A DNA stretch of 64,000 nt. It comes from Anaerolineales bacterium. GTDB taxonomy: Bacteria; Chloroflexota; Anaerolineae; Anaerolineales; DRMV01. The notes beneath the pieces are model-generated. The model was not told the origin of the DNA. It ran no database searches and was given only the letters and a program-made list of their open reading frames with translations. Numbering within the stretch: the first letter of the stretch is position 1; the number at the start of each line of letters is the position of its first letter. The stretch spans positions 846 to 64,845 of the forward strand of contig JALUDX010000195.1 of assembly GCA_027053355.1 (NCBI GenBank), written 5' to 3'. Shown piece by piece: positions 4,393 to 60,200 of the stretch. A program made the translations under genes and the position numbers.

Positions 4393-4413
4393 GGCGGTTT
4401 CTCTATTTCGGAG

Positions 4414-4619
4414 GTAACTATTCAGCCACAAGGAAATAGATCACGGATAACACGGATTTTTAGGTCGCCAAGGTCGCCAAGATGACGCCAAGGCCGCCAA
4501 GAAGTGATGGCGAGCGTGGGCTTTTTAGTGTTTTTCGCCCAATCTGCGCTCATCTTTGGGTCTCTTTCGGCGTAATCTGCGAAATCTGTGGTTTCTTCTT
4601 GCCAAGGCTGAACAGTTAC
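4414..4619 (+). mobile_element. type-A MITE-like element (206 bp), complete
   Basis: TIRs GTAACTATTCAGCC / GGCTGAACAGTTAC. Flanking 8-mers are TTTCGGAG (4406..4413) and TTTTGGAG (4620..4627), matching 7/8. About 90% identical by eye to the copy at 54005..54210. No ORF. Confidence 0.8.
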
Positions 4620-4689
4620 TTTTGGAGATAGGCGCCCCACAAGGCCTGATGGGGACGAAAAGGGGCGCCTGAGCCCAGGCAACGCCCAA

Positions 4690-4698
4690 TGGTATAAT
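4690..4698 (+). promoter_or_regulatory. candidate extended -10 promoter TGGTATAAT
   Basis: Exact TGnTATAAT. The same 9-mer class recurs upstream of four other genes in the window. It would transcribe through the repeat fragment toward the DUF951 gene. Confidence 0.4.
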
Positions 4699-4737
4699 TC
4701 AAAAGGAACGCAAAGATGTTGCCTTCCGCTGCCCGCA

Positions 4738-4926
4738 CTACGGATAGCCACGGATGCTCACAGATTTTCAGGTCGCCAAGTCACGCAAAGGGACACAAAG
4801 ACACAGAGAGGGATACGCTAAAATGACGCCAAGCGCCAAGGCGTTGCTAGTATTTTTCGCCCAATCTGTGCCAATCTGTGAAATCTGTGGACGTTTTTCT
4901 GCGAAATCGGCGTAATCTGCGGTTTA
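4738..4926 (+). repeat. type-A-like repeat fragment lacking both TIRs
   Basis: Shares CGGATAGCCACGGAT, GACGCCAAG/GCGCCAAG words, TTTTTCGCCCAATCTGTG and AATCTGCGGTTT with type A but has no GTAAC..GTTAC ends. Confidence 0.55.
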
Positions 4927-7136: not shown

Positions 7137-7316
7137 GTCACCATTCAGCCGTCGAAAAACTGCCCGCGGCTGAACACGGATAATGACGGATAGCCGCGGA
7201 TTTCGGGGCGCCGAGGGCATCAAGAGAAGCACCGGAGTAACCAAGCACCATTTACCTCAACACCTCCCGCCTTCTGTGGTTTACGGTCTGCGTCATCCGG
7301 AGGGCTGAACAGTCAC
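7137..7316 (-). mobile_element. type-B MITE-like element (180 bp), inverted orientation, internally shortened
   Basis: Ends GTCACCATTCAGCC / GGCTGAACAGTCAC. The interior is the reverse complement of the 19226..19458 copy (GGATAATGACGGATAGCCGCGGATTTCGGGGCGCCGAGGG). Flanking 8-mers CCCCAGGC / CCGCAGGT match 6/8. Confidence 0.7.
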
Positions 7317-10231: not shown

Positions 10232-10380
10232 GGCTCCTCCTCGGTGCTTGGGTGCTTGGGTGTTTGGGAACTCGGGTACTTGGGCGCCTCTCTTGGCGGC
10301 TGGCGTTTCTGTGCGCCTCCGCGCCTATCCGCCATCATCCGCGCTTGTCCACGGGCCATTTCCCAAAGGCCGCACCGTTA
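10232..10380 (+). repeat. type-B element right half (left end missing)
   Basis: GGTGCTTGGGTGCTTGGGTGTTTGGG microsatellite-like module, then CCGCGCCTATCCGCCATCATCCGCGCTTGTCCACGGGCC, ending in a degenerate right TIR GGCCGCACCGTTAC (10367..10380). Confidence 0.6.
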
Positions 10381-10436
10381 CGATTATAATAGAAACTGCG
10401 CCCAAACGACCGATTCCCGTCCCCAAAGAGAACACC

Positions 10437-11371: not shown

Positions 11372-14300
11372 TCATTCGGGCAGGCGATAGCCAAAATAGC
11401 GCACCAACAGCGCGGCCATCTCCGCGCGGGTAAGGGAAGCATCGGGGTGGTAAGTGCCGTCGGGGTATCCTGAAGCCGCGCCTTCCCAATGCAGTTGCTC
11501 GATCCAATCGGCTGCCCAATGGCCGGCAATATCCGAAAAACTGTACGCGGCAGCCGCGGGCGGGGTGTAATCAGGGCCGTGCAAAGAACGCAAGAGCAGC
11601 ACAGCCACCTCAGCCCGGGAGACCGGCGCTTCGGGGCGATACGTGCCGTCGGGATAGCCGTGCACCAACCCTTCGTCTGCCGCCTCCTCGATCCAATCGG
11701 CTGCCCAGTGCCCCACCACATCGGGGAAGGTGTTTCCTGCAGCCGGGGGCGGCGCGTAATCGCCGCCATGGATCGCCCGCAAAAGGAAGACCGCACTTTG
11801 CGCCCGGGTCACCTGGTCTTGGGGATGATACAACCCATCCGGGTAGCCAGAGGTCACCCCTTCGGCGACCAGGCTTTCCACATACGGCCATGCCCAATCG
11901 TCGGTGGGCACATCAGGGAACGTGGGGTAGGGCGAAGGGCCCTCGCTTTCCCCCGCGGCAGAAAGACAATCGGGGTCATAGGGAAAATCCACCCAGCCGT
12001 CGTGGTCGTTATCCTGGCCGTCGAAACAGGCAGCCAGCGTGACGCCCGCGGTGCTGTGGACGTCGGTGAGGGGGGTATCGAAAATATCGGGTGCGGCCAC
12101 CAGCAAGGGAGTGTAGCCCCAATGCACCATTTGCTGCAATTCTTCGGCGGTGGGCGTGTAGCCGTTACGATAGGCGATGACCGCCGCGCCGGGGTTGAGG
12201 TACTGCATCAGCAGAGGCGGCGCGGTCAACGGCGTGCCTGTCCAGCGGCCTGAAGACCAGGGGTTGTCGGGCTGGAGGAAGAGCGCGGCGCGGGTGTGCA
12301 GATAATCGCTCATCGCGCCTTCGACCCACAACGCCACGTCGGGCGCCTGGGCTTTCAGGTGCGCCAGCCAGGGCAGTTGTTGGAGCGGCGCCATGTTGGG
12401 GAAGGCGTCCAGCCCCAGGGCGTGAGCGCCGCGCGCCACGGCCAAGGCGAGTTCCTGGTCGGCAAAGGCCGTGTCGTCGGCATCGTTGGGGTCGAGGGGC
12501 GGCACCGCGTCGGGGTTCCACTGTCGCGGCTGGGGAACCTGGCCTGCCCGCCCCCACCAGAAGCCCAAATCAATGCCCTGCTCGCCGAACTGGGCGAGCG
12601 CGTCCAACGAATTGGCGACAGGCGAAAGCAAATCGCTCATGAACTGGGGCGGCAGGTTGGTGTCGCAATACGGATGTTCGCCGGGCACCACGGCCTCGGG
12701 CGGGCACTTCCAAAACTGCCCCGAAAACCCCCACAGCATGGCCCGCGAATACCCCGCCTCGCGCAGGCGCTGCACATAGGTGGAAACAAAACCCCGGTTG
12801 TCATGGTCGGGGTTGGGGCCGTCGAGGCCGTATTTGTCGGTGCGCAAGGCCCAGTTGTGGCCGCGCAAATTCCACGCCAGCACGGTTTGTTCGTCAGGCT
12901 CGCTGCCTTCCTCGCAATCGCCCGCGTTCAGGCAGGCCTGGTACTGTTCGTAAGCCACCGTGCTATACGAAAGATTGAGACCGCTGATCGGGCGCAGATC
13001 CCGAGGAGTAATCTGCCGCTGACCGCCGTACAGACCGTCGAAGAAAGCCCGATAGGGGTAAAGGGTCAGCAACCAGGCCCGCGGGGGCGCAAAGCGCAGC
13101 GTCAGGGTGAGGGTCAAGGTAGCGCCGGGCGGCAGGGTTTGGTTCCCCACCCCAAAGTCGTAAACATGGCTCCAGTGCCCCTGCCAATACCACACCCGCA
13201 TTCGCGGCTGCAGGCCGGTGTGGGGATAATCGACCAGCAGGGCCGACCCGGCGGCAAAATGGCCGTCGTGCGCCACGATCACCGGCGCGTACGCGCTGGG
13301 GTAAGGGAAGTCGTCTTCGCCATTGACCTCGAAATACCCCCAGCCGCGGAAATTGCCCTGCCCGTCCTGGAAGGTATCTTCGGAAAGGCTGCGAAGGTGC
13401 AAGTAGGGGTAAGAGCCGGTGGCCAAAATCTGCAGGGTGTCTTGCTCATCGTGGGCGGCATAAGTCAAGCCGTCCACATACAAGTCGGGGAGGGGTTGCG
13501 GCGCGTCGGAGGGGTTGGTGATGGTGTAGACCACGTTCACTCCGGCAGGCGCTTCTTCCAGGCTATACGAAAGCGAGAGCGCACCGTCGCTGTGGTCTTC
13601 CCAAAAGCGTTCGCCCTGAAAAGCCTCGCGCAACACCTGGCCGTCGCTGCGGGTGGCGGTGAACGAAGGGTCGCCCGCCTGGTTGGTGAAAATGTCGATG
13701 GTGACGTCGTCGTACAACCGCTGTGCGTCGGAAGCCGATGCTTCGAAATCGTAGACCACATCAGCATCCGCGGCAGCGCCGAAATCGCTCTTGAACATCA
13801 CCCGCCGGCCGTCGGGCGAGGGCACGGGCATGGGCGATTTGAGGTAATTGGCCGCGCTGCTAAAGTGATGGCCGAAATACTCCACGGTCTGGCTGCCGTC
13901 TAACTTCACCGCTAAAATCAGGCCCCCGCGGTCGGGGTCGGTGCTCACGTAAGCCCACCCGGGGCGCAAAATGTTGCGGCAAGAGAGGTGCGCGTCGCCC
14001 ACACCGAAATCATCCGCGGTGTGAATCACGTCGGCCTGGTCGCGGTCCAGATGATAGGCGTTGATGGTGCCGTTTTCACCCCAAAACTGCACGTACACCT
14101 CGCCCCCCGCGGGGGTAAAACACAAATCGCCGTGGTTGCCGTAGCGCACCAGGCGACGGAGGAAGGCCATGTCGGTGGTGCGGTAAGCCTCTACGCCGTA
14201 ATGGCCGTCGAAGGGCTGCACGTTCCACGGGGGGCCGCTGTTCCAATTGATGACCACATACCGCCCCGATTGCGACACCGAAACCCAGTCCACGTGTTCG

Positions 14301-15013
14301 GGCATACTGCCGCCATCGCCCCACGCGCCGGGGAAGGTGCGCACCGTGATCACCTGACGGTGTTGCAAATCGAAGACCACCACGTCCAGATCCGCGCCCT
14401 TTTTCCCCACCAAGGCGACGAAATGGTCATGGATGTCTATGTTGCCTTCGCCGGGCCCCAACGCCACCCGGTCATAGCCGGTCAGGCGCCCCAAGACGTC
14501 GTAAGCGCCGGTGACGACGTCGTAGGTCTGAATGGTGCCATCGTCACGGAAACTGTAAAGCAGGTGCGGGTCGGTATTCGCCCAAACCGTGGGGTAGACA
14601 TCGCCCGGCAGCCAGCGCACCCGTTGGTGGGTCTGAGCATCGTAAATGGCCACCGAATAAAAGCGATACAGCGTGCCGTCTGCGTTCCAGGGCTGAATTT
14701 TGGCGTATTCGTGGTGGGGATACCATTCCGCCTCTGCATCGTAAGCGGTGATGCGCTGGAGGATAGTTTGGGTGGAAGGGTCTTCCACAAAGCCGCGCAA
14801 GGACGGCAAGGCCGGGGCAGAGGCTACGATGCGTTGGTAAGTGGTGTCTTTGGGATAACCGGGGAACGCGCCCTGCCCCCAACGGGGGGCGGGCGGGGGC
14901 ACCGCGGCCCGCGCTCGCGGCGCAGCCGCGCCCCAGGCCGCGGCCAGCACCACCCCCGCGAGCAGCAAACTCAGCCCCTGATGAAGCAGACGTCGCCAAC
15001 GCACAAGGCACAC
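11372..15013 (-). CDS. very large secreted SLH-domain surface protein
   Basis: 1213 aa with a signal peptide (LLLAGVVLAAAWGAAAPRARA). N-terminal beta-propeller-like region, an unassigned roughly 550-aa middle region, a DNDHDGWVDFPYDPDC Ca-binding-like motif, and three C-terminal SLH repeats (FPDV..W...YV/WIE....G...GYPDGTY.P...VTRAE.A..L.R). Confidence 0.8.
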   Translation of the reverse strand: MCLVRWRRLLHQGLSLLLAGVVLAAAWGAAAPRARAAVPPPAPRWGQGAFPGYPKDTTYQRIVASAPALPSLRGFVEDPSTQTILQRITAYDAEAEWYPHHEYAKIQPWNADGTLYRFYSVAIYDAQTHQRVRWLPGDVYPTVWANTDPHLLYSFRDDGTIQTYDVVTGAYDVLGRLTGYDRVALGPGEGNIDIHDHFVALVGKKGADLDVVVFDLQHRQVITVRTFPGAWGDGGSMPEHVDWVSVSQSGRYVVINWNSGPPWNVQPFDGHYGVEAYRTTDMAFLRRLVRYGNHGDLCFTPAGGEVYVQFWGENGTINAYHLDRDQADVIHTADDFGVGDAHLSCRNILRPGWAYVSTDPDRGGLILAVKLDGSQTVEYFGHHFSSAANYLKSPMPVPSPDGRRVMFKSDFGAAADADVVYDFEASASDAQRLYDDVTIDIFTNQAGDPSFTATRSDGQVLREAFQGERFWEDHSDGALSLSYSLEEAPAGVNVVYTITNPSDAPQPLPDLYVDGLTYAAHDEQDTLQILATGSYPYLHLRSLSEDTFQDGQGNFRGWGYFEVNGEDDFPYPSAYAPVIVAHDGHFAAGSALLVDYPHTGLQPRMRVWYWQGHWSHVYDFGVGNQTLPPGATLTLTLTLRFAPPRAWLLTLYPYRAFFDGLYGGQRQITPRDLRPISGLNLSYSTVAYEQYQACLNAGDCEEGSEPDEQTVLAWNLRGHNWALRTDKYGLDGPNPDHDNRGFVSTYVQRLREAGYSRAMLWGFSGQFWKCPPEAVVPGEHPYCDTNLPPQFMSDLLSPVANSLDALAQFGEQGIDLGFWWGRAGQVPQPRQWNPDAVPPLDPNDADDTAFADQELALAVARGAHALGLDAFPNMAPLQQLPWLAHLKAQAPDVALWVEGAMSDYLHTRAALFLQPDNPWSSGRWTGTPLTAPPLLMQYLNPGAAVIAYRNGYTPTAEELQQMVHWGYTPLLVAAPDIFDTPLTDVHSTAGVTLAACFDGQDNDHDGWVDFPYDPDCLSAAGESEGPSPYPTFPDVPTDDWAWPYVESLVAEGVTSGYPDGLYHPQDQVTRAQSAVFLLRAIHGGDYAPPPAAGNTFPDVVGHWAADWIEEAADEGLVHGYPDGTYRPEAPVSRAEVAVLLLRSLHGPDYTPPAAAAYSFSDIAGHWAADWIEQLHWEGAASGYPDGTYHPDASLTRAEMAALLVRYFGYRLPE

Positions 15014-15020
15014 TCCTTTT

Positions 15021-17435
15021 TCACGGCAAACCCAGCACCCGAACCAGCAGCGCCGACATTTCGGCGCGCGTCACGGCCTGGTAGGGGCGGAAGGTGCCGT
15101 CCCCGTAGCCGGTGACAAAGCCTTCCTGGTGCAGGGCTTCGATCCAGTCCGCACCCCAGTAGTTCGCGATGTCCGAGAAACTGTACGCACTCACGTGGGG
15201 CGGCGTATAGTCTGCGCCGTGCTCTGCCCGCAGCAGGAACACCGCCAGTTCACCGCGGCTCAGGCTCGCGTCGGGGCGATAGGTGCCGTCGGGGTAGCCC
15301 AAGGTGATGCCGTCGTTGCGCAGCGCGGCGATCCAATCTTCAGCCCAGTGGCCGGCCGTATCGGGGAACGCGGGCTCCACATCAGGTGGTGTGAAGGATT
15401 GGGGATAGTGCATGGCCCGTTCCAAAATGGCTGCGGCCTCGCCGCGCTTGATGCCCTGGTCGGGGTGGAAGGTGCCGTCGGGATAGCCTTCTACCACGCC
15501 GTCGGCCCACACGCTGCCAATCCAGGGGAAGGCCCAGTGTTCCACCGGCACGTCGGAGAAGGGCAAAAAGACCACGGTCTGCAGGCCGTCTTCTTCCACC
15601 CCCACGAAGAGATAGCCGGCGCGGCGGGCAATGGCCACAGCCCGCCCCGCGGTGGGGAAATAGCCAACTTCGACGGGCGCGGCGGGGTCTGAAATATCCA
15701 TCGCCCACACGCCGCCCTCGCCCGCGGCCAGGTAGGCATAATGCCCCGCCACGGTGAGCGCCCGCGCCTCGCCCAAGGTGGCCGCGGAGCCCGCAAAACC
15801 CGGGTGTTGCGGGTCGCTGACGTTCAGCACCTGCAGGCCGTCGCTGCCATCGGCTACAAAGGCATAATCGCCCACCACCACCGTTTGCCAGGCCCAGCCG
15901 TCGGTGTCGTAGGCGCCGATTTCCTGGGGGTGGGCAGGGTCGGAGACGTCGACGATGTGCACCCCGGCCTCTCCGGCGCTCAGGTACACCAAGTTCCCCA
16001 CCACGGTGACGCCCACCACGTCGCCAGGGGCCTCCAAGGCACCCACTTCGATGGGGGAAGCGGGGTTGCTGAAGTCTACCACCCGCAGACCGCCGCCCGC
16101 GCCCGCGGCCACGTAGACCAAAGCATCCTGAACGGCCACTGCCCGTACCCACCCCGGCGCGTCGTAGAACCCCAATGCCTGGGGCGCATCGGGGTGGCTG
16201 ACGTCCACGGCCCATACGCCCTTGCCGTCGGCCACGTAAACCCGGCCCTCGCCGGCCGCGGTCACGCCCAGCCCCCGCCATGGCTGCGTGACACTGCCTT
16301 CGGCCACGAAGCGGTTGGGCGGGTGGAACGAAAGCACCCGCAGGCCGGGCGAATTGTCGGTCAGGTAAAGGTAATTGCCCGCCACGGCCAGGCCCATCCC
16401 CGCGCCCAGGCTGGGCAGCACGCCCACCCGTTGCGGCGCGGTGGGGTTGGTCGCATCGACGATCTGCAGGCCCTCGTCCCATTCCGCCAGGTAAACCGTG
16501 TGCCCTTGTGCGGCCACGGCTGCCGCGAAGTCGGGCAGGTCGAGGGTGCTGCGCAGGGAGGGGCGGGCGGGGTCGTGGACGTCGAAAATGCGCAGGCCGT
16601 CGAAAGAATCGGCCACGTAGGCGTAGCCATCGACCAAAACCACCCGCTGCGCCCAAGCCGTACCGCCGGTGGAGGCCACGGCCTGAGGGTGAGCGGGGTC
16701 GCTGATGTCGATCACTCGGAAGACGTCCGCATCCAAAACAAAAGCATAGGGCGACGCCAAGGCCAAATCTTCCACCCAGCCGGGGGTGTCGTAAATGGCC
16801 AAAAGGCGCGGGGCCGTGGGATTGCTCACGTCGACCACCACCACGCCGACGTCGCCCGCGGCGACGTAAACCGTCTGTCCGTCCACCGCCACGTGGGCCG
16901 CGTTGGGGATGCCCATGGTCGCCAGCCGCTGCGGCTGGCTGGGGTTGCTGACATCGACCACGCCCAGGCCAAAGTTGGGGCCGACCACGTAGGCTTTGTC
17001 GCCGGCCACGGCCACGCCGGTGGTCAGGCCCGTGGTGGTGTCGCGGCCCAAGGGGGTCAGCGTATCGCCCTGCCGCAGGAGCACTTGCAGCCCGGCTGCG
17101 CCCAGCGCGGCGTAGACGTGGTCGCCGCTAATGGCCAGGTCTTTGACCACTCCGGCCAGCCGCGGGGAACGCCCCACCACCTGGGGTGCGGCAGGGTCGG
17201 CAGCGTCGACTACCAAAATTTGCGCGCCCATGCCCAAAAGAATGCGGCCGTCGGCCCACACGATGGCTTCAGAATCTCCGCCCGTGTGCGCCACCGACTG
17301 GATGTGTTCGCCGCCGCTTGCTTCGGCCTGGGCACGGGGCGCCTGCGATGCCCGCGCGGCGGTCCCCCGACTGCCCCAAACCAAAGCCAACATGAGAAGA
17401 AGAAAACACCAAGGGAGATGTTTGCGCTGCATCAT
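15021..17435 (-). CDS. secreted LVIVD-repeat beta-propeller protein with three C-terminal SLH domains
   Basis: Signal peptide, then more than 10 repeats of the type AYVA....GL.V.DVS.P..P, and three SLH repeats at the C-terminus. ATG at 17435 or 17432 preferred over the TTG at 17444 (GGAGG just upstream). Confidence 0.8.
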   Translation of the reverse strand: MMQRKHLPWCFLLLMLALVWGSRGTAARASQAPRAQAEASGGEHIQSVAHTGGDSEAIVWADGRILLGMGAQILVVDAADPAAPQVVGRSPRLAGVVKDLAISGDHVYAALGAAGLQVLLRQGDTLTPLGRDTTTGLTTGVAVAGDKAYVVGPNFGLGVVDVSNPSQPQRLATMGIPNAAHVAVDGQTVYVAAGDVGVVVVDVSNPTAPRLLAIYDTPGWVEDLALASPYAFVLDADVFRVIDISDPAHPQAVASTGGTAWAQRVVLVDGYAYVADSFDGLRIFDVHDPARPSLRSTLDLPDFAAAVAAQGHTVYLAEWDEGLQIVDATNPTAPQRVGVLPSLGAGMGLAVAGNYLYLTDNSPGLRVLSFHPPNRFVAEGSVTQPWRGLGVTAAGEGRVYVADGKGVWAVDVSHPDAPQALGFYDAPGWVRAVAVQDALVYVAAGAGGGLRVVDFSNPASPIEVGALEAPGDVVGVTVVGNLVYLSAGEAGVHIVDVSDPAHPQEIGAYDTDGWAWQTVVVGDYAFVADGSDGLQVLNVSDPQHPGFAGSAATLGEARALTVAGHYAYLAAGEGGVWAMDISDPAAPVEVGYFPTAGRAVAIARRAGYLFVGVEEDGLQTVVFLPFSDVPVEHWAFPWIGSVWADGVVEGYPDGTFHPDQGIKRGEAAAILERAMHYPQSFTPPDVEPAFPDTAGHWAEDWIAALRNDGITLGYPDGTYRPDASLSRGELAVFLLRAEHGADYTPPHVSAYSFSDIANYWGADWIEALHQEGFVTGYGDGTFRPYQAVTRAEMSALLVRVLGLP

Positions 17436-17500
17436 GGCCTCCAAACAGAAAAGTGCCTACTGCAGGGGCGAGTTGCGAATTGCGAGTTGCGAATTAGGAG

Positions 17501-17750
17501 GTAATTGTTCAGCCTTGGGAAAATAGGCCGCGGATGAACGCGGATCATTCCGGATAGCCGCGGATTCAAGCGCGGCGTAGGGCAGGGCGTCATCCCGCCC
17601 AGCCCAAGGGAGGCGAGACAGTGTGCCGCCAACACAGGCGCGCAAAGCAAAGAGAGATTCTGTGTTTTCTGTGCCTTCTCTGTGGCTTCTGTGTTTTTCT
17701 GTCTGCGGCATCGAGATTTCTCTTTTGTTTGCACTGAACGTTACATTTAC
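17501..17750 (-). mobile_element. type-B MITE-like element, inverted orientation
   Basis: Left end GTAATTGTTCAGCC. Canonical-like right end GCACTGAACGTTAC at 17731..17744. If the element extends to 17750, the flanks ATTAGGAG (17493..17500) and ATTAGGGG (17751..17758) match 7/8. Confidence 0.65.
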
Positions 17751-17804
17751 ATTAGGGGACAAATTTTGGGGCACCGGGCACACCACGACATGGCAACGTG
17801 TCGC

Positions 17805-17894
17805 CGGCCTGTGCCAATCTGTGAAATCGGTAGATGTTTTTCTGCGAAATCTGCGAAATCTGTGGTTTCTCCTCAGTCAAGGCCGAATCGTTAC
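17805..17894 (+). repeat. type-A right-half fragment
   Basis: GTGCCAATCTGTGAAATCGG...CTGCGAAATCTGCGAAATCTGTGGTTTCTCCTC...GGCCGAATCGTTAC parallels the right third of type A. Confidence 0.55.
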
Positions 17895-18027: not shown

Positions 18028-18109
18028 TAGGGGGCAAAATCAGGGCATAAAGCCCCCGGGCTGGGGCGTCTGCTTCCCCACCCGGCATTTGAACAGCGGG
18101 CGCTGCGCC

Positions 18110-19168
18110 TTACGGCACCGGCACCACCGCGTCGTAATTGTAAAACCAGTTGTACGCGTAATACGGCGTCACCAGGCTCTGCAAACGAATGGCAATGCGC
18201 TGTTGATTGGCCAACGCCGGCGGGATGGAGAACTTGGTCTCTTTCAGGTGCCCCTGGTCATCGGTCTCGACCGTGGCCACCTGCCAACCGCCCACGCCGT
18301 AAGTGCCGTAATAATTCATCAGCACCGCGTATTTGTCGTTGGGCGGGAAGTTGTGCCCCTTGATGACCACGAAATCGTTGCGCTCCACCTGGGCGATGAA
18401 GAAATAAGGATACCCCGGCGGGCCTACGACCGGCGTTGCGCCACCGCTTCCGCCGCTGCCGGTGGTGTTGTTGTAAAACCAGTTATAGGCGTAATAATGG
18501 GTGGTGGGGCTTTCCAAACGGATGGCAATCCGATACTGCCCTGCCAACGCCGAAGGAATGGAAAACGTGGTCTGACTCAAAGCGCCGTTAGCGTCGGTGG
18601 TCACCGTCGCCACCTCCCAACCGCCAATGCCATAGGTGCCGTAGTAATTCATCCGCACCACGTAAGTGTCGTTGGGCGGGAAATTGTGCGGCGCGATGGT
18701 TACCTCCTGATCCTGCTTTACCGAGGCGATCGAAAAAGTGGGATAGCCCACGTATCCGCTCCCTCCGCTGCCGCCAGCGGCCACGTTGTAAAACCAGTTG
18801 TAGGCATAGTAACCGCTGGTGGGGCTTTCGAGGCGGATGGCGACGCGCGACAAATGCGCCCAAATCGGGGGGATGTTGAAGGTCGTGCTGCTCAAATGAC
18901 CTTGCGCGTCCGTGGTCACCGTGGTGACGTAACAGCCGCCAATGCCATAAGTGCCGTAAGGCCCCATGTAGACGTTGAACGTGTCGTTAGGGGGGAAGTT
19001 ATACGGCTGAATGGACACCGTATTGCCCGGATCAACGGACGTGATGGTGAAACACGGGTAACCGCAATAGGCGGCAACAGCCGAATGGATGAAAAAGCCG
19101 CTGCTCAACACCAGGGCCAACACCAGCATCACCACCCACAGTTTGGAAAAACGAACCGAGCGTTGCAT
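18110..19168 (-). CDS. secreted protein made of three tandem ~105-110-aa repeats (unknown family)
   Basis: Signal peptide and strong RBS AGGAGG. Each repeat carries YP.F.I..V......I....NFPPND.....M..YGTYG.GG..V.TV.TD..G.L....F.IP......RIAIRL.S.....YAYNWFYN, separated by G/S linkers. Confidence 0.75.
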   Translation of the reverse strand: MQRSVRFSKLWVVMLVLALVLSSGFFIHSAVAAYCGYPCFTITSVDPGNTVSIQPYNFPPNDTFNVYMGPYGTYGIGGCYVTTVTTDAQGHLSSTTFNIPPIWAHLSRVAIRLESPTSGYYAYNWFYNVAAGGSGGSGYVGYPTFSIASVKQDQEVTIAPHNFPPNDTYVVRMNYYGTYGIGGWEVATVTTDANGALSQTTFSIPSALAGQYRIAIRLESPTTHYYAYNWFYNNTTGSGGSGGATPVVGPPGYPYFFIAQVERNDFVVIKGHNFPPNDKYAVLMNYYGTYGVGGWQVATVETDDQGHLKETKFSIPPALANQQRIAIRLQSLVTPYYAYNWFYNYDAVVPVP

Positions 19169-19225
19169 TGCACCCTCCTTTGAAAATCAAAGAGAATCGC
19201 GAAGGCTGGTTGCAGCCAATCTATG

Positions 19226-19458
19226 GTGACTGTTCAGCCTCTACGGATGACGCAGGCAGAAAACCACAGAGAACACAGAAAGCGGGAAGTCAAGGCGTGA
19301 TGCGGGATGCGGGAAGAGGTGAGGTGCTAAAGGGTTGGTTGGTTGGTTGGTTGGTTACTCAGGCACCTCTCCTGACGCCCTCGGCGCCCCAAAATCCGCG
19401 TCTATCTGCCATCATCCGCGTTCATCCGTGGGCTGTTTTCCAAAGGCTGAACAGTTAC
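19226..19458 (+). mobile_element. type-B MITE-like element (233 bp), complete reference copy
   Basis: TIRs GTGACTGTTCAGCC / GGCTGAACAGTTAC. Perfect 8-bp direct repeat AATCTATG at 19218..19225 and 19459..19466. Contains (GGTT)6 at 19333..19356. No ORF. Confidence 0.88.
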
Positions 19459-19517
19459 AATCTATGTACAGATTACATCAAAAAGCCCAAAAATGCAAGG
19501 GGGATAACTGAGATCCG

Positions 19518-20701
19518 GACATGAGTTAGGACAAAAAAGGGAACCTCCTGTAAATTGTTTTATAGAAAAAACACCACACACAAGGAGGTTCCCTATGTAC
19601 AAGTATAAACGAATTTCCTTGGAACGCTTCGCCCATTACTTGTTTGATAACACTCATGAGGCACAACACGCCGCTGAGATTCTCGCCGCTATCTTGCACG
19701 CTCGCTCAGCACGCTTGACTGAGATCGCTGCCAAAATGCACGGCTCTATGGATGCCGCCTATAAACGCTTGCAACGCTTTCTGCAGCGCCACGACCCACG
19801 CACTGCCTTGTGGCGTCTTTTACCCGATGATGCTCCCTTTGTGTTGGCCGATGTGACCGAGATCCCCCGCCCTCAAGCCTATAAAACCAACTATGTCGGC
19901 ACCTTGAAAGACGGCCACACCAAAGGGTTTTGGGTAATGACATTCGCCACCCCTTATCGGGGGCGGGCCATACCCTGCGGTTTGCTCACCTTTTCCTCCG
20001 CCACCATCGCCCAAAAAGACGGTTCCCGCAACTTGGTGCATCAACGGGCTTTTGAGAGTTTGAAAGACCTGTTGGGTGAGCGGCCGGTGGTTTTAGATCG
20101 GGAATTCAGTTATTCGGGCCTGCTCCAATTTTTGACAGCAGCGGGCGTCCATTTCGTTATCCGTCTGCGACTGGGCTCCCGCCCGCCCAAGTTCTTTGAT
20201 GACGAAGGGAGCGAGGTCAAACTGAACATTGCCCGAGGGCAACGGGTGGTGTACCGCAACCTGTGGTACAAAGGCGAAGTGCAGGTGCAGGTCATTGGCG
20301 AATGGAGAGCGGGCCAACCCGAGCCGCTATGGGTGATCACAGACTTGGCGCCGGAGCAAAGCTTGGCCTACTACAAACAACGGATGAAGATAGAGGAAAG
20401 CTATCGTGATCTGAAAAGTCTCTTGGGGATGGAGCGGGTGATGAACAAACGGCAGGAATACATGGAGAAGGCACTTGCATTGGTAATGTTGGCGTATGCA
20501 ATTGCGCTGATGGTAGGCGAGAAACTTCGCGATGCAATGTTTGGCAATGCTAAAAGGACGAGCAAGTGGCGGCGCTATTCGGGAGCCTTTATTTTGTTGA
20601 AGGATTATTGGTCAATACCAACCCGCCTTTACAAAGAGGCGTCTAAACAAGCCTTGAGCGCCTTTGCTGATTTGGTTCTACCTCATGTCCTAACTCATGT
20701 C
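19518..20701 (+). mobile_element. IS4-superfamily-like insertion sequence (~1.18 kb)
   Basis: 16-bp perfect terminal inverted repeats GACATGAGTTAGGACA (19518..19533) / TGTCCTAACTCATGTC (20686..20701) bracket a single DDE transposase gene. Visibly lower G+C than the flanks. No clear target duplication found. Confidence 0.8.
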
Positions 20702-20704
20702 TGA
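19595..20704 (+). CDS. DDE transposase (IS4/PF01609-like)
   Basis: 369 aa with candidate catalytic D in LADVTEI, D in VLDREF and E in RMKIEESYRDLKSLLG (the R..IEE.F/Y..LK signature of DDE_Tnp_1). RBS AAGGAGG. Confidence 0.8.
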   Translation: MYKYKRISLERFAHYLFDNTHEAQHAAEILAAILHARSARLTEIAAKMHGSMDAAYKRLQRFLQRHDPRTALWRLLPDDAPFVLADVTEIPRPQAYKTNYVGTLKDGHTKGFWVMTFATPYRGRAIPCGLLTFSSATIAQKDGSRNLVHQRAFESLKDLLGERPVVLDREFSYSGLLQFLTAAGVHFVIRLRLGSRPPKFFDDEGSEVKLNIARGQRVVYRNLWYKGEVQVQVIGEWRAGQPEPLWVITDLAPEQSLAYYKQRMKIEESYRDLKSLLGMERVMNKRQEYMEKALALVMLAYAIALMVGEKLRDAMFGNAKRTSKWRRYSGAFILLKDYWSIPTRLYKEASKQALSAFADLVLPHVLTHV

Positions 20705-20756
20705 ACTTCAGGCGCAACATCGCTAAAACGTACCCCCAATCCTATTCGCGGCCTAT

Positions 20757-21677: not shown

Positions 21678-21816
21678 GTAACTGTTCGACCTCAAAGAGA
21701 AACTACGAATAACGCAGACAGAAAACCATGTTAACTCCTTAGCGCCCTAAACTCCGCGTCTATCCGTCATCATCCGCGCTCATCCGCGGGCTGTGTTCCA
21801 AAGTTTGAACATTTAC
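21678..21816 (+). mobile_element. short type-B MITE-like element (139 bp)
   Basis: Ends GTAACTGTTCGACC / GTTTGAACATTTAC. The interior matches both arms of type B with the central part missing. No TSD detectable. Confidence 0.65.
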
Positions 21817-27450: not shown

Positions 27451-30400
27451 ATGTTCGGCGCTGAAATATTGACCTTGGGCATCGCCCTGGCACTGATCGG
27501 CGTGAGCCTGTTGCTCATTGCCGGGGGATTGACGCGCGTGCAGCAGACCGCGACCGCCGCTTTGGCCTCGCCCCTCACCGCGCCGCAGCCGGAGGGAGGG
27601 GAATCTTCCACCACTGAAGAAGGGGTTATCGTGGTGTTGCAAGGTGGGCGGGTGCACTATCTCAACGCCCGAGCCCGCCAATGGTTTGGGCTTTACCCCA
27701 ACGACCAACCTTCGTTGGAACTCCTGGCGCGGCGTGTCCGCCCGCAAGACGATTTCTTCCGCCTTTGCACCCAGCCGAGCAAAGCCCGCCTCACCTTAGC
27801 CACCCAGACCTTAGAAGCCGCCTCTTACGCAGTGCCCTACCAACAACAAAAAGCCATCGTGTTGACCTTGCGCCCTCTGCACCTGCTGGTGTCTAAAAAA
27901 TCGCCCGAACTGCGGGCTTCGACTACCGAGGCGCTGGAAGTTTTCTCTGAACTCAGCCAGCAAGTCGGCGCCCACCTGCACCTGCCCAGCGCCCTCCAGG
28001 CCGCAGTGGCAGCGGTCGACCGTCTACTTCCCTCGGATGTTCTGGAAATCACCCTTTGGGATGAGACCCACACCTTCCTCATCCCTTATCGTTACACCAG
28101 CGCTGGAGCAGAAATCTTCCCCGAAAATGTTAGCGAGCGCTACGAACCAAACCAAGGCTTGACCGGTTACCTCGTTCAAAATCGGCAACCTTTGCTCATC
28201 CGTGATCTGGAACAAGAAATGCCCGTGCCCCCTGCAGTCGACCGCCGCCGTTACCCAGTGCGCGGCTACCTGGGTGTGCCCTTGCTGTTCAACGATGAAG
28301 TGATCGGCACATTGGAAGTCGCCTCCTTCGCCCCCAACGCCTACCACACTGCCGACCTGGAACTGCTCACCTTGCTGGCCGGCCCCATCGCGGTAGCCCT
28401 ACGCAACGCGCAGGTGTTTAGCCAAACCCAGCGCCAGTTGCAAGAACTACGCAGCCTGGCCGAGATCGCCGCCGCCACCGGCGAAGCCAAAGACCCGCAA
28501 CGGCTCATCGAACGCCTGGTGCACACCGTGGCGCCGCTGCTCGCCGCGGAAATCGTCGGCTTTCTGCTCTACGATGAGGCCCACCGGCTGCTGCAGGCTC
28601 AAAAACCTTTTGTTGGCCTCCCCGAAGGGTTTGTCAGCGTGTATCGGGCCTTCATCCCCGCGGGGAGCCCCGCCGACCGGCTGCTGCAGCGCGGCGAACC
28701 CCTGCGCACCGACGACGCCAGCGAAGACCCCCAATGGCAAGCCCTGGGCCTGGCCGACCTGAGCCGCACCGCCGGCATCCGCAGCAGTGTGCTCTACCCC
28801 CTGTGGACCGGTAGCCGCTTTTTAGGCTTTTTGCAGGTCGCCAACAAACCTCGCCAAGCGCCCTTCACCAACGCCGACATCCTGGCCTTGGCCCACGTGG
28901 CCGCGCAGGTCACACCGGTGTTAGAAAACGCCCTCCTCTTCCGTGAAACCCGGCACCGCGCCCAACGGGCTGAAGCCCTGCGGCGGATTGCCAGCCTGGC
29001 CGCCTCGCACGCCACCCTCGACGAAGCCTTCAAATTTTCGGTTTTGGAATTGGCCCACCTGGTCGACGCGCGCTACGCCGCGGTGCTCCTGTTCGACGAG
29101 GAACAAAATCGCCTGCTGCCTCACTTACCTTCCGTGTATGGCATTCCTCCCGCAGTAGCAAGGCGCATCGGCGCCATCCCCGGCCATCGCCCCGACTTTC
29201 ACTTTACGGTAACCCGCAGCGGGCGACCCTTCCTTTCTAATGACATTTCGCAAGACAAACGGGTAATTTCAGCCTACGAAACCATTTTGAACGCCCTGCC
29301 CAACATCCGCTCAGCCATGGTGGTGCCGCTACGCGTGGGGCAAGAAAGCGTAGGCGAAATTCTATTAGGGCATCCCGAAGCCGACCATTTCGACCGCAAC
29401 GACCTGCAAATGGCCCTCACCACCGCTGCCCAAATGGCCTTAGTGGTGGAACGGGAGCACCTGCTAGCCCAAAGCGATGCCAGCCTACGACAACAGGTTG
29501 AAGAACTACGGACAATGGCGCGGATAGGCCGTGAACTTTCACTGCTTTCTTCGCAACAACAGTTGTTGGCCTACGCCTACCAACAAATGGCTGAACTCAC
29601 CCAGGCCGATTGTGGGTACGCCTTTTTGCTCACCGCAGAAGGGCAACCTGGCCTGCGCGTCGGTGACACCGGTGCTGTCGGGCTGCACCCCTTAGAGCGT
29701 TCGGCCATTCAAGCGCAAACCGCGCAGCGCGTCGACGATTTTCAGAACGAGACCGCCTTCCCTCAGCCGCACGAAGAAGTACGCGCCGCATTGGTGCTCC
29801 CTTTGGTGTTCCACAACCGCGTGCTGGGTGTGGCCCATCTCCACGCCAAAAAAGCCTACCACTTTGATGCCTCTCGGCAGCGTCTGGCCAGCCTGCTGGC
29901 ACAGCACGTGGCAGCAGCCTTAGGCGCAGCGCAGCAAACCGAAACCCTGCGGCAAGAAAACCAACGCCTGCAACGCCAAATCCACGCGCTGCAACGCCTG
30001 CGCCAGTTTCTGGCCCAACACGCGCCCCTCGAACACCCTTTCGCCGCGCTCGACGACCTGGTAACCGAAATGCAACATGCTACGGGCTTCGACGCTGTGC
30101 TCCTGGCCCGATACGAACCCACGACCGGTATGCTGCAACCGGTAACCGCACCGGGCTTTGCCCAGGCTGACCCTCTGCCTCTCGATAGTCTCAACCTGCT
30201 GCTGGAAGACCGCTTCCACCATGATGGCGTGTACTTCATCCCCGCGGAGGCTCGCCCCCCTCTGCCACACAACCTGACCCTGCCCGTGCCCGAACGCCCA
30301 TTGCCGCGACTCGACACCCCCCGCGGCTGGCAGGCCGAAGACATCCTCCTCGCGCCCCTACGCACTGACCAAGGCGAGCCCTTGGGCGTACTGCTGTTGC

Positions 30401-33400
30401 AGGCCCCGCGCGATGGCAACCGCCCCGACGACGACCTGTTCGCGGTGCTCCGCCTGTTTGCGGCCCAAGCCGCCTGGCTGCTTCAAGTGCAAGCCGTGCA
30501 ACAAGCCTGGGAAACCGAGCGCCAACGCCTCGCAGCCCAGGCCACCGAAGCCCAAGAGGCTGCACACATCGCCCAACGCGACCTGCCCCGCTGGCTGCGG
30601 AAAGACCTCCAGCAAGCCCTCGACCGCTACACCCTCGCCCGCCGCGCTGAACGCCTGCAAGTGGGGCTGGAAATCACCACCCTGCTCAACCGTCAGCCCA
30701 GCCGCGACGCGGTGCTCAATACCTTGGGGCAGCAACTCTTAGAGCGCATGGGCTTCAACCATGTGCTCATCGGCGAACCCGCTACCGGCGAAAACGGCCA
30801 AACCGTGGTACGGTTAGTGCGCACCTTTGGCGAAGTGCCCTCCAACCTCAAACTTGACCTTTACTTGGGGCAACGCAACCCCCTCGACGAGACCATGCGC
30901 CAGCGCAGCGTGCTCATCGTCAACGACATGAGCCGAGACCAAAACTGGGAACGCTCACCACTGCTACAACACCTACACGCCCAAAGTTTCATTGCCTTCC
31001 CCATCACCGTAGAACAGCACATCCAGGCCATGGTGTTGGCCGTCTCGCAAGCCACGCTGCCCACCCTTTCAGCCAGCGACGGGCAAATTTTCGACCTTTT
31101 AGGCCATCAGGTCGGTATCGTGTTGCAAAACCTTTCGCTGTTAGCGCGCACGTCACGGCGGCTACGCGAAGCCGACCTACTGCTCACCTTCAGCCGCCAA
31201 CTGGGCGTGCTCGACCCCGAACGCATCCTCAACACCCTGATGGAAAGCACTTTAGGCGCGCTGTCCTCAGCCCACGCGGGCTTCATCGCCATGTGGGACG
31301 AAACCCAAAGGGTGCTGCTGCCCCGCTCCGTGGGCGGTTACGCCCAGCCCGAGGCCATTTTCCAAATCACCTTGGGGGAAGACAGCCTGCCCGCGCAAGT
31401 CATGCTGCAAGGCCAACCCCGACGCATCGCGGAACTGGACTTTGCCACCGCCTACCCCTTAGACACCGACGCCCTCCTGGCCTACCACCGCCTGACCGCG
31501 GAGCGAATGCCGGTTTCGAGCATGATGGTGCCCATCCGCACCGGAGAACGCGCCTTGGGGGTCATCGTGCTCGACAATTTCAACGCCCCCAACGCCTTTT
31601 CCATGGAAGACCAAATGCTGGTGGCCTCGTTGGCCCAGCAAACAGCCCTCACGTTAGAAAACGCCTACCTACTGCACACCGCGGAACAACGCGCCGCCCA
31701 ACTGCAAGCCCTGGCCCAGGCTTCCTCCGAATTTCTTGCTCACAGCCGCTCCGAAGAAGAGGTAGTGGCCTCGCTGCTGGAGCGGCTGGCCGAAGTGCTG
31801 CCCTACGATGGCGGCACCCTGTGGCTGCGCGAAGGCGAGCGGCTCACCGTGCGTGACGCCCGCGGCCTCCCCAACGTGGAAGAACTGCTTGGGGTTAGCG
31901 TGGCGGTGGAAGACAGCCGCCTCTTCCAGGATATGTTAGCCTCCCGCCAACCCCTGGTCGTGCCCGACACCCACCAAGACGAACGCTTCCCCGCGGCCGA
32001 GGCCATGCCCAACCGCTCGTGGCTGGGGGTGCCGCTGCGCTTCGAAGACCGGGTGTTGGGCGTGATTGCCTTAGAAAAGCGGGAACCCCGCTTCTACACC
32101 GCCGACTGGGTGCAAACCGCGGCCACCTTCGCCAGCCAGGCCGCGGCCGCGCTGATCAACGCCCAACTGCTGGCCGAAAGCCTGCGCCGCGCCGAAGAAC
32201 TCGACCGCCGCACCCAGCGGCTGGGGCTGGTCTACCAGGCCATGGCTGCCCTTTCGGCCTCTTTGGATCCGCAACACATCGCCAACTACACCGCCGAGCA
32301 CCTGCAGCGGGCTTTGGGCGGCATCCCCACCTCTGTGGTGCTGTGGGAAGACGAAGTCGCCACCGTGGTGGCCGAAAGCCCACCCGCCGAAGACCAGGCG
32401 CTCCCCCAAGCGTTGCCTGCCGCACCGATTTTCGCACACCTGGCCGAAACGCGGGGGCTCTTCCGCAGCGAGCATTACGCGGAAGAGCCGCTGCTGGCCC
32501 CCCTCACCGACTTTTTTACCGCTCACCATGCCCAGGCCGTGGTCGCCCTGCCTCTGGTGGCGGGGCAAACCCTACTGGGCGCTTTGTTCTTCCACTTGCC
32601 CGACCCCGACGCGCTCACCGGCGACGAAGTCGCCTTAGCCCAAACCATTGCCCATCAGGCCGCGATCGCCCTCCACAACGCACGCCTCTACGAAACCACC
32701 CGCCGCTTCAGCGAAGAACTGGAAGCCCGCGTGGCTGAGCGCACCCAAGAACTGCAACAAGAACACCACCGCGCCCAAACCCTGCTGCGCATCATCACCG
32801 AACTTTCGGCCAGCCTGGACCTCGACCAGGTGCTCAACCGCACCTTGGGGCTGCTCAACGAAGCCCTGAGCGCGGAGCAAAGCACCGTGCTGCTGCGGAA
32901 AGAAGGGCAACCCACCCTCTTCTACCGGGCTGGCCACGGCTACACCGACCCGCCTCCGCTGGGCGGTCGCCCCACCCAAATTTCGGCCACCGATTCATTA
33001 GCCGGCTGGGTAATTCAACACGGTGAGGCCGTGCTGATCCCCGACGTGCGCAAAGACCCGCGCTGGCAAAACACCTCGAGCACAGACCACGAACAACACC
33101 GCAGCGCGCTGGCCGTGCCGCTGATTGTGGCCCAAGAGGTGTTGGGCGTGCTGCTCCTCTTCCACCGAGAACCCAATCACTTCACCCCTTACCACCTGGA
33201 TCTGGCCCAGGCCACAGCCAAACAAATCGCAGTAGCCATCACCAACGCCGAACTCTTCGACCTGATTCGCGACCAGGCCGAACACTTGGGCAAACTGCTC
33301 CGCCAGCAAGAAGTAGAAGCCAGCCGTGCCAAAGCCATCCTCGAAGCCATCGCCGATGGGGTGCTGGTCACCGACCCCGAAGGCAAAATCACCTTGTTCA

Positions 33401-41223: not shown

Positions 41224-41290
41224 ACCTGTTTGTAACCGTTCAGCCTCGAAGAGACGCTACGGATAACGCAGGCAGAAAACCACAGAAGAC

Positions 41291-41682
41291 GTAATGCATA
41301 ATCAACCATGATAGTTGGTTTAGGCCTTTTGCAACTTGGCGCCCAAATTTTTGATCTCTCCCTACCCCGCTCCGGCGAGGCCTCGCCTTCGCTCAGCCTG
41401 CCGGAGCCGCCCCCTTTCCTCCCTTACTTGCACTTTGACAAATTGTTACGACAATCCGAGGCTATGGCCTGGGCCGGTCTCCCCTCTCCCTCTGGGAGAG
41501 GGGCCGGGGGTGAGGGCGTAAAAAGCCCATTGGCTTAGCGCCCTCACCACTCCCCCGGACGCCGCCCAGCGGCGTCCGGGGGAGTGGTGAGGGCGAGCAA
41601 GGTGTAATGCTGTTTCATGGCATGGCAGAGTTATTGGAATATTGCTTGTCAACCTCGTTTTCGGAGCAGGGCAGGTAGTTAC
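41291..41682 (+). mobile_element. nested non-coding element (392 bp) with GTAA...TTAC ends and perfect 8-bp TSD
   Basis: Flanked by CAGAAGAC at 41283..41290 and 41683..41690. Starts GTAATGCAT and ends GGTAGTTAC. Carries G/C-rich hairpin modules. Confidence 0.8.
41539..41595. repeat. perfect 27-bp-arm inverted repeat (hairpin/cruciform)
   Basis: CGCCCTCACCACTCCCCCGGACGCCGC - CCA - GCGGCGTCCGGGGGAGTGGTGAGGGCG. Every arm position is complementary. Confidence 0.9.
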
Positions 41683-41840
41683 CAGAAGACACAGAAAGCG
41701 GGATGTGGGGAACGGGAAGTGGAATGCGGCCGTTGGCGTCATTTTGGGGCCTCGGCGCCCAAAAATCCGCGTCTATCCGCCATCATCCGCGTTCATCCGT
41801 GGGCTGTTTTCCAACCCAACAAGGAATGGCCTGACGACCC

Positions 41841-49526: not shown

Positions 49527-49666
49527 GGAGAAACCGCAGATTGCGCGGCTAAAAAGCGGAAAGCGAGGTGCGGAGGGATTGGGGGGTAGTTACTGGTTGC
49601 TTGGTTGGCTGGTTGCTTGGTTATCCGGGTCAGCCGCGGCCGATTTTCTCAAGGTTGAACAGTGGC
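49527..49666 (+). repeat. mosaic of repeat fragments (type-A end word, ..GGTAGTTAC end, type-B right half)
   Basis: GGAGAAACCGCAGATTGCGC, GGGGTAGTTAC, the TGGTTGCTTGGTTGGCTGGTTGCTTGGTT microsatellite-like module, and a degenerate right TIR GGTTGAACAGTGGC (49653..49666). Confidence 0.5.
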
Positions 49667-49804
49667 CGCGCCTCTGATTACCCGACACAAAAGCAATCGT
49701 GCCCCGGCCGTTGTTTCATTGACCGGCAGATCTCATCTCGTCATGCCAAATCTTTACAAAAGTCTTGTTTTTCACGCCCTCTCCTCTCCCCCCAAGCCGC
49801 CCCC

Positions 49805-49936
49805 CTTCGACTTCGCTCAGGGCAGCCTTCGACTTCGCTCAGGGCAGCCTTCGTCTTCGCTCAGGGCAGCCTTCGTCTTCGCTCAGGGCAGCCTTCGTCT
49901 TCGCTCAGGGCAGCCTTCGTCTTCGCTCAGGGCGGC
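49805..49936. repeat. 22-bp tandem repeat, 6 copies
   Basis: CTTCG(A/T)CTTCGCTCAGGGCAGC repeated head to tail with no spacers. The last unit ends GGCGGC. Confidence 0.9.
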
Positions 49937-49942
49937 GGCTTT

Positions 49943-49984
49943 CCCCCCTCCCCTCTCCCGCAGCAGCGGGAGAGGGGAGGGGGG
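49943..49984. repeat. perfect 19-bp-arm G/C-rich hairpin
   Basis: CCCCCCTCCCCTCTCCCGC - AGCA - GCGGGAGAGGGGAGGGGGG. Confidence 0.9.
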
Positions 49985-50846: not shown

Positions 50847-50849
50847 AAA

Positions 50850-50898
50850 ACCACAGATCACACAGATTTCGCAGAAGGAAATCTGTGCAATCTGTGGT
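50850..50898. terminator. long hairpin between convergent genes, built from repeat-family words
   Basis: ACCACAGATCACACAGATTTC - 7-nt loop - GAAATCTGTGCAATCTGTGGT, with 19/21 positions pairing. Preceded by AAAAAA. Lies between the FAH stop (50846) and the M20 stop (50910). Confidence 0.45.
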
Positions 50899-60177: not shown

Positions 60178-60200
60178 GGTCACCTCCATGGCGTCTGATG

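Follow-up and report, generated by a model that had tools for sequence, protein, structure and literature searches.

A mosaic miniature inverted-repeat transposable element family with ISBst12-type ends in Anaerolineales

Short repeats that share their ends but seem to differ in their interiors raise the question of whether they are separate lineages or variants of a single family. We addressed this question for a 64,000 nucleotide long stretch of DNA from an Anaerolineales bacterium (NCBI GenBank assembly GCA_027053355.1, contig JALUDX010000195.1, positions 846 to 64,845 of the forward strand), in the following called the window. An earlier note on this DNA had described two types of repeats, A and B, in which the same 14-bp ends enclose unrelated "cargo". 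As explanation it had offered either one transposase that mobilises several non-autonomous lineages or an exchange of interiors by recombination. We analysed the window together with 57 loci of relatives rich in the repeat (~424 kb in all, a sample of the genomes; loci are designated L005 and so on). Both cargo types turned out to be mosaic forms of a single MITE (miniature inverted-repeat transposable element) family, whose terminal inverted repeats (TIRs) match those of ISBst12-group (IS66-family) elements.

The 14-bp end GTAACTGTTCAGCC and its complement matched the window 22 times at up to three mismatches, compared to 3.67 ± 1.85 matches in shuffled sequences. The shared ends and their dispersed occurrence, as described before, were thus borne out. 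Paired TIRs were found in 42 elements, with complete copies being 99–430 bp long. A BLAST census using these 42 elements as queries provided about 15 copies and fragments in the window, which amount to roughly 2.4 kb or 3.7% of its 64 kb. In the window's list of open reading frames (ORFs) none of at least 100 aa lies wholly inside any copy. Type A was present at 4414–4619, 54005–54210 and 62515–62719 with the reported lengths of 206, 206 and 205 bp. The pairwise identity of these copies was 84–88%, such that the earlier estimate by eye (~90%) was slightly too high. The element at 4414–4619 has the ends GTAACTATTCAGCC and GGCTGAACAGTTAC and is flanked by TTTCGGAG and TTTTGGAG. A diverged type-A copy at 60201–60375 was recovered as a degenerate copy, and the type-B copies at 19226–19458, 7137–7316, 17501–17750, 21678–21816 and from 41232 onwards were all present.

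The claim that the interiors are unrelated in sequence, with only the 14-bp ends in common, did not hold. This impression arose because B had been read on the opposite strand, in addition to the variable core. After reverse-complementing B, both types have in common a left arm, 45 nt or longer, comprising the TIR, a spacer and CGGAT repeats spaced by 9–10 bp, as well as a right arm of about 40 nt with CTGYG repeats. The shared order is a TIR, a spacer of ~12 nt, two to four CGGAT repeats followed by TTTTAGG, CGCCAAG-like repeats, a variable core, CTGYG repeats (TCTGTG, ATCTGCG) and the second TIR. The pattern GTAAYNNTTCAGCC-N15-16-CGGAT-N4-5-CGGAT matched three A and two B copies of the window, with 0 matches expected by chance; at the B copy 19226–19458 the match lies on the minus strand. 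When the TIRs were removed, local alignments of A with flipped B interiors scored z = 3.9–7.3 over dinucleotide shuffles, versus z = 0.7–3.4 in the orientation used earlier. The motif arrays have a period of 9–11 bp. The real difference between A and B is confined to the central 60–100 nt, a core that is made up of short arrays with a 9–11-bp period (CGCCAAG, CGCAAAG) and small hairpins.

An alternative would be two independent non-autonomous lineages, each carrying truly unrelated cargo and each having gained the same 14-bp ends. Between A and B the central 60–100 nt could not be aligned convincingly, BLAST provided no direct A–B link at E < 1e-3, and the mean core distance was 0.60 compared to 0.34–0.39 for the arms. 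The common architecture, however, extends well beyond the ends into both arms, the interiors are similar once B is flipped, and intermediate copies hold both sets of modules (see below). We consider independent lineages very unlikely and this reading as largely refuted. Judged from the sequence, A and B are variants of one family and not two unrelated cargo lineages.

The intermediates were found in related metagenome-assembled genomes (MAGs). A-type and B-type interior modules occur in series in L043 (1307–1585, 279 bp) and L052 (6774–7023, 250 bp). A four-repeat, B-like left arm is combined with an A-type CGCCAAG array in L005 (2062–2306) and L012 (1987–2231). The earlier note had contrasted its proposal with the possibility that A and B are deletion derivatives of one longer element, connected by intermediate forms. 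This describes our data in large part, as intermediates do exist. The A core is, however, not a simple subset of the longer intermediate copies, such that deletion alone does not account for all of the variation.

Both the module table and the alignment through the intermediates revealed mosaic combinations of modules. For 27 elements of 170–300 bp, from loci chosen for intact left arms and divided into arms and core by a crude partition, left-arm and right-arm distances were uncorrelated (Mantel test, r = -0.04, p = 0.6), and arm and core distances were weakly correlated (r = 0.17, p = 0.02; r = 0.29, p = 0.0015). Since the arm distances are uncorrelated, the two ends of one copy would differ in their genealogy and the copies would be mosaics, for which these data are supportive rather than conclusive. 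Recombination or template switching between copies would yield uncorrelated arms, on top of deletions and changes of array length, and fits the observations. From the earlier suggestion of exchanged interiors, the exchange is therefore in agreement with the uncorrelated arms and the mosaic modules, while the notion of A and B as separate lineages fails. A B fragment (53947–54004) and an A copy (54005–54210) that had been taken as a sign of exchange do abut; they are compatible with exchange but no proof of it. The A copy is without a target-site duplication (TSD), and the junction, which has none either, resembles a nested insertion with subsequent recombination or deletion of adjacent sequence.

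Evidence for mobility came from the TSDs. The two reported for type A were found again, TTTCGGAG/TTTTGGAG (7/8) and CCCCAAAA (8/8), and a third one, AATCTATG (8/8), flanks the B copy at 19226–19458. For TIR pairs up to 600 bp apart in the window and the 57 loci, perfect 8-bp TSDs, unrelated to one another in sequence, flank 17 elements, and TSDs with 7/8 matches flank four more, whereas none of the control pairs with TIRs more than 500 bp apart reached 7/8. The TSDs have a G+C content of 45% versus 62% for the window. For the copy at 19226–19458 we predicted the empty site by joining the left flank, a single AATCTATG and the right flank, and matched it against metagenome contigs. Contig Ga0256831_1086695 matched this query exactly. 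It is 96.2% identical to the window over 18102–19225 and resumes at 19467, so that the missing part corresponds to the 233-bp element plus one AATCTATG. Because the exact empty site is found in a close relative, transposition with an 8-bp duplication is demonstrated here and not inferred, in form of a filled/empty polymorphism between close relatives. L047, tried as a further empty site for this copy (B1), was rejected; it holds another copy of an IS4-like insertion sequence (IS) in a different context.

Palindromic elements of the REP/RAYT or IS200/IS605 type, which move as single-stranded DNA, would share the palindromic hairpin potential of the repeats. Such elements are, however, without TIR-bounded ends or target duplications and are marked by a conserved tetranucleotide tag or a guide hairpin, whereas arbitrary 8-bp TSDs surround precise GTAAC...GTTAC ends here and an exact empty site exists. 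Because of these TSDs and the empty site we reject such an origin, to which we assign next to no probability. The repeats combine a small size (<500 bp), TIRs, TSDs of fixed length, insertion polymorphism, and a multicopy, dispersed occurrence. The family is thus a MITE, previously undescribed but conventional.

Which transposase may move these elements? GTAA... ends together with 8-bp direct repeats are a signature of the IS66 family (PMC11946415, PMC12888890). A member of its ISBst12 group, ISDge4 from Deinococcus geothermalis, encodes a single 449-aa transposase, has the 14-bp TIRs GTGACTACTCAGCA and GTAACTGCTCAGCA and was found experimentally to transpose, with an 8-bp direct repeat CCTCGATG (PMC12898284, 2026). 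The ISDge4 TIR is identical to the MITE consensus at 12 of 14 positions. On the Geobacillus kaustophilus plasmid pHTA426, a gene annotated as "IS66-like" (DDE_Tnp_IS66, 1.9e-64; zf-IS66 also matched) belongs to an element of 1635 bp with the TIRs GTATCTATTCAGCCC and GTAACTATTCAGCCC and the TSD GACGAGTT (8/8). The second of these TIRs is identical over 14/14 positions to the left TIR of the A copies at 4414–4619 (A1) and 54005–54210 (A2). Similar ends were found in metagenomic ISs. The IS encoding the transposase P0027 has the TIRs GTAACTATTCAGCC ... CCTGAATAGTTAC and the 8-bp TSDs ATAAAAAG, CACCTTTT and AGAAGTTC; its end GTAACTATTCAGCC agrees with the type-A left end at 14/14 positions. In the IS encoding P0067 the TIRs are GTAACTGCTCAGCC ... 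GGCTGAGCAGTTAC, the first of which is also the TIR of the MITE copy at L015 1909–2180. The IS encoding P0137 is 1565 bp long with the TIR GTAACTGCTCAGCT and the TSD CTTTGCTG. Compared to ISDge4 and the P0067 and P0137 ISs, the MITE ends are identical at 12–13 of 14 positions. From the matching TIRs and the 8-bp TSDs, the MITE ends can be assigned to the ISBst12 group at the sequence level.

The likeness between MITEs and ISBst12-group ISs comprises TIRs of 14–15 bp (GTAACT[A/G][T/C]TCAGC[C/T], 12–13/14 identical to the MITE consensus), the 8-bp target duplication and a TGA in the right TIR. In the metagenomic ISs this TGA is the stop codon of the transposase, and in the MITEs it is placed as in the full-length ISs. 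The ISs differ by their length of 1.56–1.64 kb with one ORF of ~450–505 aa, compared to MITEs of 99–430 bp without a transposase gene. They also differ by the absence, in the ISs examined, of the subterminal CGGAT/CTGYG arrays of the MITEs.

Taken together, we propose that one mosaic MITE family with ISBst12-type ends is mobilised in trans by a transposase of the ISBst12 group, an explanation that we consider probable. A typical copy consists of the 14-bp TIR GTAACTGTTCAGCC, a left arm with two to four CGGAT repeats, a variable core, a right arm with CTGYG repeats at 9–10-bp spacing and the second TIR. It moves by DDE-type cut- or copy-and-paste transposition, with 8 bp of the target being duplicated as seen at the empty site. 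The transposase would be supplied in trans by an ISBst12-group (IS66-family) IS, as suggested by the end identity and the TSD length. The A and B variants would arise from internal deletion, expansion and contraction of arrays, nested insertion, and recombination or template switching between copies. As the copies are non-autonomous transposons with shared ends, a transposase acting in trans is their natural mobiliser. From the idea of one transposase with several non-autonomous lineages this part stands, and that of A and B as separate lineages does not.

Several points weigh against this proposal, in addition to the crude partition behind the Mantel test. Neither in the window nor in the 57 loci did we find an autonomous ISBst12-group element. 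The subterminal regions of the ISBst12-group ISs examined contain no CGGAT arrays. The probable link to the ISBst12 group is based on 14 bp of identical end sequence and on the lengths of TIRs and TSDs. Furthermore, recombination and repeated independent deletion can be separated only in part. Since the ISs examined are without CGGAT subterminal repeats, the true partner must belong to a different subgroup, and on present evidence the family would be classified as a type II rather than a type I MITE, with only the TIRs shared with known ISs.

The search for the partner covered several routes. With ISBst12-group transposases as queries, tblastn provided no match at E ≤ 0.01 in the window and the 57 loci, and the same DNA contained no long TIR pairs with TSDs. 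TIR pairs of IS66 size (2.3–2.75 kb; L005, L007, L037, L039 and L052) were rejected as candidates, being two separate MITEs that flank ordinary genes without a TSD. Another 23 left-arm matches without a nearby right TIR were discarded as autonomous elements; they are truncated copies, nested insertions or contig ends. An all-against-all comparison of the ORFs of the loci provided no multicopy transposase. In the reverse direction, no MITE copies were found on the contigs carrying four of the ISBst12-group ISs. Among the best 120 of thousands of ISBst12-group transposases listed none had a Chloroflexi label, and almost none had an organism label. The MITE right arm, translated by eye, did not match the C-termini of ISBst12 transposases beyond the TIR-encoded G-stop. 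The arm of a relative had no blastn match in a plasmid collection, the arm pattern had 0 matches in viral contigs, and no IS66-family gene is annotated on plasmid pO157.

With the ISBst12-type partner not being found in the window and the loci, one may consider a mobiliser from another family with 8-bp TSDs (IS6, IS256, IS1595, ISL3 or hAT-like) or the IS4-like IS of the window. The combination of subterminal arrays and 8-bp TSDs is reminiscent of hAT and P elements. The IS4-like IS carries the sole transposase found in the window and is located at 19508–20711, only 50 nt from B1. It is complete, 1204 bp long, and has 26-bp TIRs (CTGAGATCCGGACATGAGTTAGGACA and an imperfect complement) as well as a 369-aa DDE_Tnp_1 transposase at 19595–20704. 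Because the TIR CTGAGATCCGGACATGAGTTAGGACA is unrelated to the MITE ends and the element has no 8-bp TSD, we rejected it as the mobiliser. A mobiliser from any of these other families appears unlikely, since the MITE ends are identical at 14 or 13 of 14 positions to those of four independent ISBst12-group ISs that also make 8-bp TSDs. A second copy of the IS4-like IS is present in the MAG contig L047 (96.6% identity), and the related contig L061 departs from the window exactly at the left end of this IS.

Within the window, copies lie 10–45 nt from gene starts or stops. One of them lies upstream of glmS: a glmS ribozyme at 60380–60608 on the minus strand (Rfam, 39.7 bits; gathering score 37) precedes the minus-strand glmS ORF at 58336–60189. 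The decayed copy at 60201–60375 falls between the ribozyme and the start codon and is thus inside the glmS leader RNA. The elements fold as long hairpins with z down to -11. In 33 of 39 copies the RNA of the strand with the 5' CGGAT arm is the more stable one, by a mean of -8.8 kcal/mol, because CGGAT pairs with AUCUG through G.U pairs. The repeats may alternatively be kept mainly as structured RNA or DNA elements, such as REP/BOX-like mRNA stabilisers, terminators or regulatory hairpins, with transposition being incidental. The long hairpins, the more stable 5'-CGGAT strand and the closeness to gene starts and stops, including the position inside the glmS leader, would agree with this. The fold asymmetry is, however, inherited by descent and does not represent 39 independent events. 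Relative to the flanking transcription four copies of the window are oriented in sense and four in antisense. The elements have no Rfam match at the gathering threshold (the window matches being a tRNA and the glmS ribozyme only), and a consensus scan of the copies provided no promoter-like sites and only few, weak terminator-like hairpins. Also, many copies are decayed. A primary role as structured elements is accordingly improbable, and we do not claim an RNA role. The fold asymmetry could result from transposase sites that are asymmetric, from biased mutation or from selection acting on the RNA.

In a further reading the family would be more than selfish DNA, namely a regulatory module that spreads across phyla through ISBst12-type mobilisation. 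The arrays with 9–11-bp phasing (CGGAT, CGCCAAG, CGCAAAG and CTGYG) would be a platform for protein binding at multiple sites, and the RNA of one strand could influence mRNA stability or translation. This reading draws on the TIR-plus-CGGAT arm in MAGs labelled Chloroflexota, Planctomycetota and Proteobacteria, on the strand-asymmetric, G.U-rich hairpin and on the closeness to gene starts, including the position in the glmS leader, and we regard it as speculative and rather unlikely. If true, the arrays would mark a subgroup of the IS66 family with an undescribed transposase-end architecture.

The copies of the MITE family are spread over the window as follows. A1 with its TSD occupies 4406–4627 (plus strand; element 4414–4619, 206 bp) and is positioned upstream of a minus-strand M50 peptidase gene, about 21 nt from its start. 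It is followed at 4714–4925 (plus) by a degenerate A-like copy that consists of the interior only and is without both TIRs. The 94-bp spacer between the two holds an extended -10-like box TGGTATAAT at 4690–4698. A type-B copy of 180 bp with a decayed TSD (6/8) is located at 7137–7316 (plus) between an ORF of unknown function and an epimerase gene, and a partial B-like copy at 10243–10381 (minus), a left arm with the degenerate TIR GTAACGGTGCGGCC, lies 12 nt upstream of the psiE start. In the 250-bp type-B copy at 17501–17750 (plus) the left arm is intact and the right TIR degenerate; a right-half fragment with an A-type right arm and the TIR GGCCGAATCGTTAC lies at 17798–17894 (plus). B1 with its perfect TSD spans 19218–19466 (minus; element 19226–19458, 233 bp) and contains in its core a (GGTT)n microsatellite of ~6 units at 19334–19358. 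A short B copy of 139 bp, from which the core is deleted, is found at 21678–21816 (minus) between DUF4388 and GTPase genes. Another B copy is split by a nested insertion into the right arm with TIR at 41232–41290 (minus) and the core with the left arm, without left TIR, at 41691–41815 (minus). Further minus-strand fragments are a left arm at 49618–49663, a short right arm with CTGYG repeats at 50845–50883 and the B-type right arm at 53947–54004, which adjoins the 206-bp copy A2 (54005–54210, plus) with intact TIRs. The degenerate A-like copy in the glmS leader lies on the minus strand, as does A3 with its perfect TSD at 62507–62727 (element 62515–62719, 205 bp).

The insertion that splits the B copy is a member of a second repeat family with GTAA... 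ends. It is located at 41291–41682 (392 bp; no strand assigned) and flanked by the perfect 8-bp TSD CAGAAGAC at 41283–41290 and 41683–41690. These ends and the length of the TSD point to the same transposase superfamily. Internally it holds a 27-bp perfect hairpin at 41539–41595. The 106 nt at its right end were also found in L008 and L052, where they lie within or close to first-family copies. At 49782–49957, about six tandem copies of the 22-nt unit CCTTCGTCTTCGCTCAGGGCAG are flanked by inverted CCCTCTCC / GGGAGAGGGG blocks. This array may be another member of the second family with an expanded array, given similar sequence inside nested second-family elements, e.g. in L008. Repeats were also found in coding regions: an array with 54-nt period in a GC-rich ORF (44453–44940), repeats with 189-nt period at 11394–15488 in or near the ORFs of LVIVD/SLH surface proteins (11372–15013 and 15021–17444), and three repeats of 315–333 nt at 18138–19013 in the ORF directly left of B1. 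A 2318-aa ORF at 27451–34407 has 35–40% identity over 235–323 aa to ORFs in L005, L012, L030 and L039.

One protein of the window was found encoded on the ENA metagenome contig REYS20-1. To follow the family beyond the window, the left-arm pattern was scanned over one genome per species. It provided at least 57 loci, among the matches listed nearly all in MAGs labelled Anaerolineales, Caldilineaceae, Candidatus Caldilinea saccharophila or Chloroflexi, with single matches in bins labelled (as deposited) Planctomycetaceae, Methylococcaceae and Rhodoblastus. In MAG JALVOR01 the same left flank TGTTGT[A/C]GAA[G/T]C stands beside five MITE copies (L008, L010, L016, L030 and L057), of which all except L057 also have the common right-hand sequence ...GCCCTCA[T/C]CCCATAA[C/T]AGGGCA[A/G]CCATTTCTACA. 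Either the insertions hit a preferred target within some other repeat, or a composite repeat was amplified after the MITE had inserted. In the Methylococcaceae-labelled MAG, 2.28 kb between the same TIRs (L037 4759–7037) enclose an MsbA-like ABC transporter gene. Both ends of this segment are a CACGGAT hairpin without inner TIR, and the flanks repeat 5 bp only (TTTTC). The segment might represent a relative that carries cargo, or just two decayed MITEs.

How does the family compare to known elements? Size gradients, truncated copies without TIRs and nesting have been described for prokaryotic MITEs (PMC10969869). Chunjie (Geobacter), QMITE1/QMITE2 (Coxiella) and Correia (Neisseria), which show gradients of size and sequence, likewise are smaller than 500 bp and intergenic, have TIRs and TSDs that decay with age, form hairpins and include many truncated copies without TIRs or TSDs (PMC10969869). 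The family described here differs from them in the parent IS family, the GC-rich host DNA and its unusually high density. With a short tandem repeat unit in its interior, BrickBuilt of Porphyromonas gingivalis is a precedent for a minisatellite within a MITE (PMC4596501). The pneumococcal BOX, RUP and SPRITE repeats are often clustered and inserted into one another, as seen here. In contrast to these, several different arrays of 9–11-bp period occur in one element here; the likeness is one of structure, and no sequence relationship is expected. In type II MITEs and in the cross-mobilisation of eukaryotic Stowaway/Tourist elements one transposase family acts on the ends of diverse non-autonomous elements. 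The window likewise contains a nested second family, which has an 8-bp TSD and GTAA ends. Unlike in such cross-mobilisation, A and B are not independent families, since their subterminal arms are shared. We found no paper that describes the TIR string of this family, and nothing relevant by title or abstract on MITEs in Chloroflexi. The review of prokaryotic MITEs mentions neither IS66 nor Chloroflexi (PMC10969869).

Biologically, the family remains an ordinary MITE. With the present analysis, an uncharacterised and very abundant repeat of Anaerolineales and Caldilineaceae MAGs gains a name and a mechanism. It becomes tied, at the strength given above, to one particular group of transposases (ISBst12, IS66 family), for which the review lists no derived MITE (PMC10969869). 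At about 3.7% of the window, the repeat is probably in part responsible for the fragmented assemblies of these genomes. Because copies occur immediately upstream of start codons as well as within a riboswitch leader, annotators should mask them prior to predicting promoters or untranslated regions. Finally, the conserved ends, i.e. the 14-bp TIR including the TGA and the phased CGGAT repeats, provide a map of candidate binding sites for a poorly characterised transposase family.

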